Below, piece after piece: positions 1-3,313 of a stretch of DNA of 32,000 nucleotides. The translations under genes and the position numbers were made by a program. The DNA lies in contig ACYB01000010.1 of assembly GCA_000175855.1 (NCBI GenBank), positions 1-32,000 of the forward strand. Direction: 5' to 3'. The stretch is from Raphidiopsis brookii D9 (GTDB lineage Bacteria > Cyanobacteriota > Cyanobacteriia > Cyanobacteriales > Nostocaceae). Position 1 is the first letter of the stretch; every line of letters starts with the position of its first letter. The notes below the pieces were generated by a model, which worked only from the letters and a program-made list of their open reading frames with translations, was not told where the DNA came from and ran no database searches.

Positions 1-165
1 ATCCCATTTACGATTTTGCTCATCCCATTTATGAGCTTGCTCAGCTTGGAAAGCATCGAATTTACGATTTTGCTCATCCCATTTACGATTTTGCTCATTC
101 CACTTACGAGCTTGCTCAGCTTGGAAAGCATCGAATTTACGATTTTGCTCATCCCATTTGCGAGC
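1..165 (-). repeat. In-frame intragenic tandem repeats (21-nt and 54-nt sub-units forming a 75-nt unit) encoding EQxRKW / EQNRKFDAFQA
   Basis: Repeated strings ccatttacgattttgctcat and agcttgctcagcttggaaagcatcgaatttacg are visible directly. At least two full 75-nt units lie before the window edge. Confidence 0.85.
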
Positions 166-345
166 CTGCTCTTCCCTGTCTCGCTGTAACTCATTCAAAA
201 CTCGGTCAAATTTTTCGTCAAACTCAGTCCGGGGAGTGTAATATTCTGACACCGTCCGCAGGACAAAATCCCGCACACCTGGTTCCTCCGCGATCGCCCG
301 GGGCAATTCTTTTTGAATTAATGCCTTAATTTCAGCCTCTATCAT
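1..345 (-). CDS. N-terminal part of a third paralog of the tandem coiled-coil / PD-(D/E)XK-like gene family; continues past the left edge
   Basis: Reverse-strand ATG at 343-345 with 115 in-frame codons down to position 1. The first 64 aa are identical to the ORFs at 380-1051 and 1089-1835 (MIEAEIKALIQKELPRAIAEEPGVRDFVLRTVSEYYTPRTEFDEKFDRVLNELQRDREEQARKW). They are followed by DEQNRKFDAFQAEQARKW NEQNRKW DEQNRKFDAFQAEQAHKW DEQNRKW D... Confidence 0.8.
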   Translation of the reverse strand, partial: MIEAEIKALIQKELPRAIAEEPGVRDFVLRTVSEYYTPRTEFDEKFDRVLNELQRDREEQARKWDEQNRKFDAFQAEQARKWNEQNRKWDEQNRKFDAFQAEQAHKWDEQNRKWD

Positions 346-379
346 AGGTTTTTGGTATAGATGTTGAAATGCTTCCCTT

Positions 380-1051
380 TTATGGTACCACTACATCTGC
401 ATAACTATATATCTCAATGCCTAGGGATTTAGCTACCGGTACAGCTCGCTCATCCACCATGGGCGAAATCACAATTTTACGGTTAACCACTCTATTTTGA
501 TTTTTAGCGTAGAAGTCTGCCTTACGACCAAAGATGTACATACCAGCTTTGTCAATAGAAGACTTAAGTTCACAGACAATAGTTAGCCCATTTTTGATGA
601 TTATATCCAATTCCACCTGTTCTGGTCGACCAAATACTTCTCCCTCCTGGTCGTAAAGGGTGAGATTGAGCACCTCCACCCCAAAGGACTGGCCTAGAAT
701 GGCTTGGAGTCCATTACGGAAACTAGCTTCAGAATAGAGACCCCAGCGGGAACCAATAGCACCAATGGCACTTTCGTAACGACGGTTAGCTTTCTGGATT
801 TCCTCCAGGGTAGCACTGTTCTGGGCTTCGATTCTGTCCAGACGTTGATTATTTTCCTCCCATTTGCGAGCCTGCTCTTCCCTGTCTCGCTGTAACTCAT
901 TCAAAACTCGGTCAAATTTTTCATCAAACTCAGTCCGGGGAGTGTAATATTCTGACACCGTGCGCAGGACAAAATCCCGCACACCTGGTTCCTCCGCGAT
1001 CGCCCGGGGCAATTCTTTTTGAATTAATGCCTTAATTTCAGCCTCTATCAT
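380..1051 (-). CDS. Uncharacterised protein: conserved N-terminal region, short coiled coil and C-terminal PD-(D/E)XK nuclease-like domain. From memory it resembles the DUF3782-type cyanobacterial/archaeal family. This is the short form with no extra repeat unit.
   Basis: 223-aa ORF from the track. It has a heptad-rich segment (REEQARKWEENNQRLDRIEAQ) and the motif ELD(149)-x11-E(161)LK(163). It is near-identical to the neighbouring copy. Confidence 0.8.
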   Translation of the reverse strand: MIEAEIKALIQKELPRAIAEEPGVRDFVLRTVSEYYTPRTEFDEKFDRVLNELQRDREEQARKWEENNQRLDRIEAQNSATLEEIQKANRRYESAIGAIGSRWGLYSEASFRNGLQAILGQSFGVEVLNLTLYDQEGEVFGRPEQVELDIIIKNGLTIVCELKSSIDKAGMYIFGRKADFYAKNQNRVVNRKIVISPMVDERAVPVAKSLGIEIYSYADVVVP

Positions 1052-1088
1052 AGGTTTTTGGTTTTATAGGTGTTGAAATGCTTCCCTT

Positions 1089-1835
1089 TTATGGTACCAC
1101 TACATCTGCATAACTATATATCTCAATGCCTAGGGATTTAGCTACCGGTACAGCTCGCTCATCCACCATGGGCGAAATCACAATTTTACGGTTAACCACT
1201 CTATTTTGATTTTTAGCGTAGAAGTCTGCCTTACGACCAAAGATGTACATACCAGCTTTGTCAATAGAAGACTTAAGTTCACAGACAATAGTTAGCCCAT
1301 TTTTGATGATTATATCCAATTCCACCTGTTCTGGTCGACCAAATACTTCTCCCTCCTGGTCGTAAAGGGTAAGATTGAGCACCTCCACCCCAAAGGACTG
1401 GCCTAGAATGGCTTGGAGTCCATTACGGAAACTAGCTTCAGAATAGAGACCCCAGCGGGAACCAATAGCACCAATGGCACTTTCGTAACGACGGTTAGCT
1501 TTCTGGATTTCCTCCAGGGTAGCACTGTTCTGGGCTTCGATTCTGTCCAGACGTTGATTATTTTCCTCCCATTTGCGATTTTGCTCAGCTTGGAAAGCAT
1601 CGAATTTGCGATTTTGCTCATCCCACTTACGAGCTTGCTCATCCCATTTGCGAGCCTGCTCTTCCCTGTCTCGCTGTAACTCATTCAAAACTCGGTCAAA
1701 TTTTTCGTCAAACTCAGTCCGGGGAGTGTAATATTCTGACACCGTGCGCAGGACAAAATCCCGCACACCTGGTTCCTCCGCGATCGCCCGGGGCAATTCT
1801 TTTTGGATTAATGCTTTAATTTCAGCCTCTATCAT
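1089..1835 (-). CDS. Paralog of 380-1051 with one extra 25-aa coiled-coil unit (uncharacterised coiled-coil / PD-(D/E)XK-like protein)
   Basis: 248-aa ORF. It is identical in protein sequence to the 223-aa copy except for the insertion DEQARKWDEQNRKFDAFQAEQNRKW after REEQARKW. Only 4 nucleotide differences occur in the alignable 650 nt, all synonymous. Confidence 0.85.
   Translation of the reverse strand: MIEAEIKALIQKELPRAIAEEPGVRDFVLRTVSEYYTPRTEFDEKFDRVLNELQRDREEQARKWDEQARKWDEQNRKFDAFQAEQNRKWEENNQRLDRIEAQNSATLEEIQKANRRYESAIGAIGSRWGLYSEASFRNGLQAILGQSFGVEVLNLTLYDQEGEVFGRPEQVELDIIIKNGLTIVCELKSSIDKAGMYIFGRKADFYAKNQNRVVNRKIVISPMVDERAVPVAKSLGIEIYSYADVVVP
1569..1646 (-). repeat. Single 75-nt in-frame repeat unit, present in copy 1089-1835 and absent from copy 380-1051
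   Basis: The Trp codons (cca) at 1569-1571 and 1644-1646 are 75 nt apart. In the short copy the flanks are directly joined (tcctcccatttgcgagcctgctc, about 846-868). Confidence 0.85.
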
Positions 1836-2203
1836 AGGTTTTTGGTTTTATAGGTGTTGAAATGCTTCCCTTTTATGGTACCACTACATCTGCATAACTA
1901 TATATCTCAATTGAGGTGATGAGTATATTGGTAAAGCAGATAGTGATTAAATAAGGGGAGGGGAGTAGGAGAAATGAGAACCTCAACACAAAAAACTTCA
2001 CAAAAATTGATAAAGCGAAACAAAACTAAATCTAAAGAAATAATTAAGGAATTTTAGATCAGGAAAAAAATCGGGGAAAATAATTATTAATAATATGGAG
2101 CAAAAAAATAAAGCTCTAAATAATCATAAGTAAATATAAAACCGTGCAACGTCTGCCTTCACCATAGAGGGAAAGACGTTGTGCAACTTTTCAGTGATCA
2201 CAG

Positions 2204-3313
2204 ATGACGGAGACAATAGTAGTTAAAATAGGCACTTCTAGCCTCACTCAAGCGGAAACTGGCAAATTAGCCCTTTCCACCATTGCTACCCTCACAGAAA
2301 CCCTCTGTCGTTTAAGACAGCAAGGACACAGAATGATTTTAGTTTCTTCGGGTGCTGTGGGTGTAGGTTGTGCCCGACTCGGACTAACAGAAAGACCTAA
2401 AGCCATGGCCCTAAAACAAGCTGTAGCTGCGGTAGGGCAGGGTCGTCTTATGGGTATTTATGATGACTTATTTACCACTCTAGAACAACCTATAGCCCAA
2501 GTATTATTAACCAGAGCGGATTTAGTAGAGCGTAGCCGATATTTAAATGCCTATAATACATTTCAAGAGTTATTAGGACTAGGAGTAATTCCCATAGTCA
2601 ATGAAAATGATACAGTAGCAATAGAGGAATTAAAATTTGGCGATAACGACACTCTTTCAGCTTTAGTTGCCAGTTTGGTAGAAGCAAATTGGTTATTTTT
2701 GCTGACAGATGTTGACCGGTTATATTCAGCTGATCCAAGGAAGGTACGCAATGCTCAACCGATTAGCCTAATTAGTAACATCAGAGAACTGGAGGATCTG
2801 AAGATTCAAGCAGGGGGACAGGGTTCACCATGGGGCACAGGGGGGATGATGACAAAAATATCTGCTGCTCGGATTGCTATGGTGGGGGGGGTGCGCACAG
2901 TAATTACCCAAGGACGTTTTCCCCATGACATAGAAAAAATCATTGCGGGAGAGCAAATAGGAACTCACTTTGCACCCCAACCAGAACCAACTTCCGCTAG
3001 AAAAAGGTGGATAGCTTATGGTTTAGTTCCAGTGGGAAGGTTATACTTGGATGAGGGAGCAGTTATAGCTATTTCTCGCGGTGGAAAATCCTTATTACCA
3101 GCAGGAATTAAAATGGTAGAGGGAGAATTTGACAGTCAAGACGCGGTGCAATTATGTGATCTTCAAGGTAATGAGATTGCCAGGGGATTGGTTAACTATA
3201 ACAGTCAAGAGTTGGCAAAAATTCGCGGTTGTCATTCCCGGGATATTGAAGATATTTTAGGTTATGGAGGTATAGAAACTGTTGTTCATAGGGATAACCT
3301 GGTTTTGATTTGA
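2204..3313 (+). CDS. proB: Glutamate 5-kinase (with C-terminal PUA domain)
   Basis: 369-aa ORF with [24 protein letters not shown] and FGDNDTLSA motifs, plus a C-terminal PUA-like LPAGI...GDxV...ARGLVNY. Confidence 0.9.

Follow-up and report, generated by a model that had tools for sequence, protein, structure and literature searches.

Proteins that combine the Pfam domains DUF3782 and PDDEXK_10 (formerly DUF1626) carry an N-terminal coiled coil ahead of a restriction-endonuclease-like domain. Knizewski et al. (2007, PMC1913061) placed DUF1626 in the PD-(D/E)XK superfamily, close to DUF91 and Hjc/Hje, and a related DUF3782-type stalk has been crystallised as a parallel trimer, the bacterial endonuclease members being without nonad beta-layers (Hartmann et al. 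2016, PMC4786415). Here we analyse a 32,000-nt stretch of Raphidiopsis brookii D9 (contig ACYB01000010.1, positions 1 to 32,000; hereafter the window). Positions 1-1911 of the window, on the minus strand, are the upstream (5') end of a head-to-tail array of genes with the same domain pair. In contrast, the published reports deal with single proteins, and they describe neither tandem arrays nor paralogs that vary in stalk units. The locus places a known, uncharacterised nuclease family in an apparently undescribed arrangement, a multi-copy array of stalk-length isoforms. No tandem arrays of stalk-length variants are described in the literature that we consulted on DUF3782, PF07788, DUF1626 and raciborskii nucleases, which did not cover all journals. 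The initial annotation, made from the sequence of the window, had suggested that such arrays were new; this appears correct for the arrays of length variants, but the coiled-coil stalk itself had been described before (PMC1913061, PMC4786415).

In function, the nearest analogue is the TAEL repeat of the Type I restriction subunit HsdS, where a change from two 12-bp repeats in EcoR124I to three in EcoR124II shifts the recognition gap from N6 to N7 (PMC3874165). As in the array, repeats are gained or lost in frame within the coiled-coil spacer of a DNA-acting enzyme. However, the effect is proven for HsdS, where a single gene carries the 4-residue unit and the antiparallel coiled coil joins two DNA-reading domains, whereas the arrays place as many as 12 genes in one genome, use units of 7 and 18 residues, and have no sequence relationship to HsdS. 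Intragenic repeats also alter, through slippage or recombination, the length of elongated helical proteins in streptococcal M proteins, in the stalks of trimeric autotransporter adhesins, and in injectisome and flagellar rulers. Those proteins are surface-exposed or secreted and vary between alleles or strains, unlike the co-resident paralogs of a cytoplasmic-type nuclease found here. Tcar0761 and the crenarchaeal DUF3782 stalks (alpha/beta coiled coils, PDB 5APZ) share with the array proteins a run of many consecutive near-perfect repeats, Tcar0761 having 14 MATKDDIAN units. The Tcar0761 units are nonads that form beta-layers, with no nuclease domain, while the units described here are heptads and heptad-hendecads with no 9-residue period. 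CoCoNuT systems were also considered and set aside; the paper describing them (PMC11090510) mentions neither DUF3782 nor such an architecture.

Stalk units and predicted protein architecture

The array copies in the window (A, B and C; Table 1) differ in two repeat units. Unit S (21 nt, DEQNRKW) is one heptad. Unit L (54 nt, DEQNRKF-DAFQ-AEQxxKW) is a heptad plus a hendecad, and can be described as two S-like heptads with four additional residues. All copies contain REEQARKW. Copy B then runs directly into EENNQRLDRIEAQ, copy C has DEQARKW and DEQNRKFDAFQAEQNRKW inserted before the shared sequence resumes, and copy A continues with L-S-L-S and one codon of a fifth unit. Tandem Repeats Finder reported a period of 75 nt at 1-163 (2.2 copies, 95% matches, score 298), and the 21-nt repeat family has 12 copies, well above anything that chance would produce. 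Apart from the repeat block the copies hardly differ, with 4 synonymous and 0 non-synonymous differences between copies B and C, and differences of 2-3 nt between copies in the N-terminal 192 nt.

The initial annotation had noted that copy C has 75 extra in-frame nt and copy B none, and that the edge copy is still inside the repeat where the window ends (at least 153 nt). Direct reading of the copies agrees on each point. It had placed the insert of copy C at 1569-1646; the insert itself stands, but we place its end at 1643, a 3-nt difference that arises because the anchor heptad is itself repeat-like and the boundary can slide. Two further proposals do not hold. According to the first, copies lengthen in 25-residue steps. 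The 75-nt unit is simply S plus L, and the copies vary in the number and order of S (7 aa) and L (18 aa), each independent of the other, at one fixed point of the stalk, both being multiples of 3 nt and hence in frame. We counted 19 insert lengths (0, 7, 14, 18, 21, 25, 32, 36, 39, 43, 46, 49, 50, 54, 57, 61, 68, 75 and 79 aa). Furthermore, the start of a fifth unit in copy A means that its insert measures 57 aa or more; a length of 50 is impossible, which breaks the 25-residue step. An LSLSS pattern is present in the close relative P0002 and in array L090. Judged by these comparisons, the 25-residue step is a coincidence of the copies that happen to lie in the window. According to the second proposal, the copies form a length-graded series. 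In array order, the window copies have 25, 0 and at least 51 extra residues, and other arrays are likewise unordered.

The closest homologs of the array proteins are all from Cylindrospermopsis (Raphidiopsis) raciborskii. The proteins of copies B and C have no exact match among recorded sequences. The visible part of copy A gave a tblastn match of 77%, and differs by one residue from P0002, which is of the LSLSS type.

Pfam matches, judged against curated gathering scores, identify both domains in the complete copies. DUF3782 (PF12644) matched copy C with 90 bits (cut-off 24.4, E=1.1e-25) and copy B with 90.9 bits (E=5.7e-26), and PDDEXK_10 (PF07788) matched copy C with 71.4 bits over profile positions 1-74/74 (cut-off 21.2, E=5.9e-20) and copy B with E=4.6e-20. 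AlphaFold2, run as a monomer with a 65-sequence alignment, predicts for copy C a head (residues 1-36) of two short helices (3-20 and 22-35), followed by a single unbroken stalk helix of 76 residues with pLDDT 77-86 over the repeats. In the longest relative, P0008 (LLLLS, 302 aa), the predicted helix extends over residues 39-168 (130 residues, pLDDT 89-95). The repeat region is thus predicted to be helical and not disordered in both proteins, and the Pfam and AlphaFold2 results agree with the earlier view that the inserts lengthen a stalk between an N-terminal module and a nuclease-like domain.

Beyond the stalk, the copy C model has a nuclease fold with helices at 132-148 and 193-209 and strands at 151-159, 169-178, 181-187 and 216-220 (pLDDT ~90). 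The best structures in a Foldseek search were EndoMS 5gkj (E=6.7e-4), NucS 2vld (E=1e-3) and AF1548 1y88, with probability 1.0; the EndoMS/NucS-type matches cover the nuclease core only, at 14-20% sequence identity. This echoes the kinship with DUF91/NucS and Hjc/Hje reported earlier (PMC1913061). Residues E133, R137, N138, E172, D174, E186 and K188 are invariant in 65 homologs, so that the catalytic set is present (acidic motif I E133, motif II D174, motif III E186-x-K188). With E133, D174, E186 and K188 unchanged throughout the alignment, the active site appears to be intact. Many DUF1626 members have a threonine at motif III, in contrast to the lysine kept by the array copies. The C-terminal domain is a predicted NucS/EndoMS-like PD-(D/E)XK nuclease with an apparently intact active site. 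While NucS/EndoMS (DUF91) is the best structural match of this domain, NucS has an N-terminal DNA-binding and dimerisation domain in place of a long helical stalk.

Between stalk and nuclease lies a linker that is among the best-conserved stretches of the family. It contains GAIGSRWG, and G122, G125, R127, W128 and G129 are invariant. It also has the lowest AlphaFold confidence in both models (pLDDT 35-55), and may fold only in an oligomer or on substrate. Other searches added little. Sequence and profile searches of solved structures returned coiled-coil noise only (Get1, KMP-11), NCBIfam gave nothing useful, PHROGs gave weak matches only, and a viral fold library gave generic nuclease-fold matches.

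Hydrophobic periodicity is 3.52 over the S repeats, 3.62 over the L repeats and 3.58 over the whole helix, and the aromatic residues of the stalk line up on one stripe. These values fit a coiled coil whose supercoil would relax in the L units, and they bear out the suggestion of the initial annotation that the units preserve coiled-coil phase. In its continuous predicted helix and in a hydrophobic periodicity within 3.5-3.67, the stalk agrees with a canonical heptad/hendecad coiled coil. It does not match an alpha/beta coiled coil, which repeats 9- or 6-residue units with the motif [aliphatic]-A-T-K-x-[DE]: the units here are of 7 and 18 residues, and none of the representative stalks has a dominant period of 9. 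By direct reading, there is one N-cap-like motif (YTPRTEF), and it lies only ahead of the stalk.

Arrays in other strains and in the wider family

Six chromosome-scale assemblies of related strains have arrays of 12, 12, 11, 7, 8 and 11 copies, with inserts of 7-79 aa and no order of length along the array. In L001, the patterns run LLLS, LSSS, LLLLS, LS, LSSSS, LS, LLS, LLSSS, LSS, SSS, LLSS and S, giving inserts of 61, 39, 79, 25, 46, 25, 43, 57, 32, 21, 50 and 7 aa. Species-wide, and with metagenome-derived proteins included, the unit patterns number at least 21 and the insert lengths 19 (0-79 aa). Unit and copy numbers are not invariant across strains.

Three strains are informative about the rate of change. 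Their left flanks differ by 2-4 substitutions in 7.3 kb (99.92-99.97% identity), and their arrays differ in copy number (12 vs 11), in the units of 2-3 copies (copy 6 is LS, LLS or LLLS, and copy 10 is SSS or SS), and in the nuclease-coding part, which shows distinct mosaics of single-nucleotide polymorphisms (SNPs). Because the flanks are near-identical and the arrays differ, the array changes faster than its surroundings, as would fit the origin by slippage and unequal exchange proposed in the initial annotation. Most array positions retain their unit pattern across strains although SNPs are reshuffled between copies. This pattern points to turnover by unequal exchange and conversion, but not to hypervariability at every copy.

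The arrays are of two types. Window-type arrays (L004, L084, L085 and L090) have 34-37-nt spacers and proteins with the tail ...VVVP, and their patterns include 0, SSS, LSS, LLSS, S, LLLSS, SLSS, LSLSS, LLLS and LLL. In the second type (tail ...MVVS), spacers are ~265 nt rather than 34-37 nt (e.g. L001 8682-8946), with ~228 extra nt between the stop codon and a shared 43-nt leader. The second-type spacers fall into several sequence classes, and an Rfam search of these 265-nt spacers gave no match. Window-type and L001-type copies are separated by a synonymous divergence (dS) of ~0.46, with a ratio of non-synonymous to synonymous divergence (dN/dS) of 0.04 and proteins ~96% identical. This is a deep synonymous divergence between two array types inside one named species.

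For the non-repeat parts, comparisons within arrays give a dN/dS of 0.07 and those between array types 0.04, and the chromosome-scale assemblies have almost no broken copies. With low dN/dS and intact reading frames, every copy behaves as a functional gene. The substitution pattern indicates strong purifying selection on the non-repeat parts of every copy.

The DUF3782 + PDDEXK_10 family has a wide distribution and is wholly uncharacterised. A HMMER scan that covered 1.84 billion representatives found 907 clusters at 50% identity (E ≤ 0.001), from cyanobacteria, purple sulfur bacteria, Competibacteraceae, methanotrophs and archaea. Complete proteins among the best matches listed are ~210-407 aa long and conserve the C-terminal ~170 residues, so stalk length varies across the whole family. 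For a survey of repeats we used 90 representatives with a recognisable linker motif. Stalks of near-identical internal repeats were found in 32 of them, with dominant periods of only 7, 11, 14, 18, 21, 22, 25, 28 and 29 residues, each of which is made up of 7s and 11s. Different lineages use unrelated unit sequences (for example ESNRKWEESNRKLDEHMR, 18 residues; LEEHSKR, 7; KFQEEQKAWER, 11; and one 25-residue unit). Expansion at the same position, by unrelated units and with coiled-coil periods, indicates that independent, phase-preserving expansion of the stalk is recurrent in the family. The restriction to periods of the 7-, 11-, 18- and 25-residue type offers a clean natural example of coiled-coil phase constraints.

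Explanations for the differing stalk lengths

The explanation that we favour, and consider reasonably probable, is an array of functional, near-identical genes whose copies differ by the number and order of S and L at one point of the stalk. Each gene would encode a two-helix head, a long uninterrupted helical stalk, a glycine-rich linker (GAIGSRWG) and a C-terminal nuclease. Slipped-strand mispairing and unequal recombination, acting inside single genes as well as between adjacent copies, would add and remove units. As a rigid spacer, the stalk would probably form a parallel coiled coil, to which each S would add ~1 nm and each L ~2.7 nm, and one genome would then encode a set of nucleases with the catalytic domain ~7.5 to 19.5 nm from the head. 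Such an array represents a natural allelic series of proteins that are alike except in stalk length and are all under purifying selection, and it illustrates how tandem gene duplication and intragenic repeat slippage can jointly diversify protein geometry.

Several observations weigh against this explanation. Arrays L001-L003 hold more distinct lengths than expected from a pooled null (P = 0.002-0.014), but with a uniform null, or in arrays L087 and L088, the excess loses significance, so the outcome depends on the null model. Lengths are unordered along the array. Some of the SNP mosaicism between arrays could be long-read polishing error, and the unit counts of the window copies rest on assembly. 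The coiled-coil and rigidity reading derives from a monomer prediction, and the stalk has one strongly hydrophobic residue (W) per heptad and many i/i+4 charge pairs (14 in 79 aa). Sparse hydrophobic residues and i/i+4 acid-base pairs mean that a single stable helix is possible instead; on the models, the stalk would be a rod either way, of ~1.05 nm per S and ~2.7 nm per L. Finally, the nearest neighbours at 77 loci in other taxa include no conserved partner or target gene. An operon-encoded multi-gene system was rejected because no partner is conserved at these loci. Antigenic variation of a surface protein was also rejected, as the proteins have no signal peptide and contain an intracellular-type nuclease domain.

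Neutral drift in length is possible, though we find it less convincing. Under such drift, the array would be kept for dosage or for other reasons not connected with the stalk, and unit number would wander as the 21- and 54-nt repeats slip, with any phase-preserving length tolerated. Drift would be in keeping with the absence of length order and with the dependence of the distinct-length excess on the null, and also with the same length occurring twice in one array (25 aa in L001; 57, 50 and 25 aa each in L088). Units that are multiples of 3 would moreover slip in frame regardless of selection. Harder to reconcile with drift are the strong purifying selection on every copy, the unit patterns held at most positions across strains while SNPs reshuffle, and the repeated expansion of the same stalk position in unrelated lineages with coiled-coil-compatible periods only, although none of these points proves that length is used. 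Use of length is the core of a more specific proposal, which we consider unlikely, that the array is a built-in length series of up to a dozen otherwise identical nucleases held at fixed distances from the head in steps of 1 and 2.7 nm. Such a series might cut at many offsets from a head-bound target, or reach targets of varied size, and slippage and unequal exchange would keep regenerating it. If true, it would be a new form of effector diversification in prokaryotes, by geometry and not by sequence specificity, with a possible link to defence given the neighbouring Type ISP-like system described below.

That the unit differences are chimeras or collapses, produced when near-identical copies were mis-joined during assembly, is hardly credible. 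Draft assemblies do break inside the arrays (L084, L085 and L090), the array in chromosome-scale L004 (a 3.48-Mb contig) is full of frameshifts, and the window itself begins inside an array. However, several chromosome-scale assemblies resolve between 7 and 12 intact copies, and their patterns are reproducible, which speaks strongly against an artefact in general: L089 repeats the final five unit patterns of L088, L001-L003 share most patterns, and L086 and L087 have the same copy order except for one extra copy. Separately sourced metagenome proteins also carry S and L in further combinations. In practical terms, the arrays cause short-read assemblies to fragment in a cyanobacterium that is important as a toxic bloom former. 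Very unlikely, too, is that differing stalk lengths serve to insulate paralogs by blocking co-assembly, so that each copy is homo-oligomeric. The near-identity of head, linker and nuclease leaves the stalk as the only possible discriminator, and related DUF3782-type stalks crystallise as parallel trimers (PMC4786415), but lengths are duplicated within single arrays, no specificity differences are known between copies that would need insulation, and the idea is wholly inferential.

Features of the window and genomic surroundings

Coordinates of the array in the window are collected in Table 1. Similarity to the array units found in other strains breaks off at precisely 1911, which means that the border of the array falls within a copy.

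Table 1. Array features at the start of the window, with the evidence for each in parentheses.
Feature	Position	Strand	Description
Copy A (edge copy)	1-345	-	ATG at 345, runs off the window at base 1; first 115 codons (translation)
Copy A repeat block	1-153	-	L 153-100, S 99-79, L 78-25, S 24-4, codon of fifth unit 3-1
Copy A anchor heptad	154-174	-	EEQARKW; S-like itself; site of unit gain and loss
Spacer between copies B and A	346-379	-	34 nt
Copy B	380-1051	-	223 aa; shortest form, zero extra units (open reading frame, Pfam)
Spacer between copies C and B	1052-1088	-	37 nt
Copy C	1089-1835	-	248 aa; first complete gene of the array (open reading frame, Pfam, AlphaFold2 model)
Copy C insert	1569-1643	-	75 nt; S 1643-1623 (DEQARKW) and L 1622-1569 (DEQNRKFDAFQAEQNRKW)
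Copy C predicted continuous stalk helix	1494-1721	-	Residues 39-114 (AlphaFold2)
Copy C linker	1443-1496	-	Residues 114-131; ESAIGAIGSRWGLYS
Copy C predicted PD-(D/E)XK nuclease domain	1116-1442	-	Residues 132-240 (invariant columns, EndoMS/NucS fold match)
Copy C invariant residue E133		-	
Copy C invariant residue D174	1314-1316	-	
Copy C invariant residue E186	1278-1280	-	
Copy C invariant residue K188	1272-1274	-	
Array boundary	1836-1911	-	37-nt spacer, then stop and last 12 codons (IEIYSYADVVVP; 1876-1911) of a truncated extra copy

In the window, the array borders on an AT-rich gap and then on its 5' neighbour at 2204-3313, which from its sequence we take to be proB. The metagenome relative L091 (1-791) is 95% identical over 1980-2770, and there a HAD-phosphatase-like gene is found and no array. 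Since the array is absent upstream of proB in L091, the adjacency of array and proB is lineage-specific. A metagenome search with a 33-mer spanning the array junction gave no match. Other C. raciborskii strains have a methyltransferase gene or DUF2555 on the 5' side of the array. This variation of the 5' flank between lineages suggests rearrangement at the array.

At the other end of the array, which lies outside the window, other strains have a convergent gene pair as the 3' neighbour (L084 2439-9991; L088 14046-20843). One gene encodes a SNF2/ResIII-type helicase of 1413-1419 aa with a PbeA-like N-terminus. The other encodes an N6-methyltransferase of 1073-1080 aa with a Type_ISP_C specificity domain, and matches the PADLOC Type IIG model with E=8e-216. 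From these matches, the pair looks like a split Type ISP-like restriction system; in L004 it is fragmented. The array protein itself also matched a PADLOC model over its full length, PDLC01085 'C3a181' (E=2.4e-17, residues 43-240 vs profile 38-225/226). The PADLOC match and the restriction neighbours are hints of a role in defence, not evidence for one, and no defence partner is conserved across the 77 loci in other taxa. PDLC01085 is labelled 'Diadenylate cyclase', a name that does not suit a coiled-coil and PD-(D/E)XK protein and is apparently a labelling error in the library. No tandem-repeat arrays were found past 1900 in the window, where cas genes were not looked for.

A genome scan for loci of the family, which did not have Cylindrospermopsis among its results, found that outside Cylindrospermopsis the genes usually stand alone within 20 kb. 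Among the genes next to them are sugar-biosynthesis genes, mutS, Uma2, DUF4351, antitoxin and transposase genes. In L083 (4311-5784 and 10001-12171) and in the neighbourhoods of L005-L082, single family genes stand beside multi-copy nuclease-like genes (Uma2 x6, DUF4351 x3, DUF29), and family genes also occur within polysaccharide-biosynthesis clusters. This pattern of neighbours is reminiscent of mobile or selfish genes.

Plus-strand open reading frames at 16-189, 704-895 and 1413-1679 (57-88 aa, e.g. MLIPFMSLLSLESIEF...) were rejected as mirror images of the minus-strand genes. A scan for promoter-like sites found 4, against 4.4 expected in shuffled sequence, and terminator-like sites were also close to chance (5, against a shuffled expectation of 2.1 ± 1.4). 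The cyanobacterial HIP1 palindrome GCGATCGC occurs 21 times in the 32 kb, against 0.06 expected. Its sites at 290, 996 and 1780 fall one per array gene, in the part that encodes the head, and 18 more lie elsewhere in the window.

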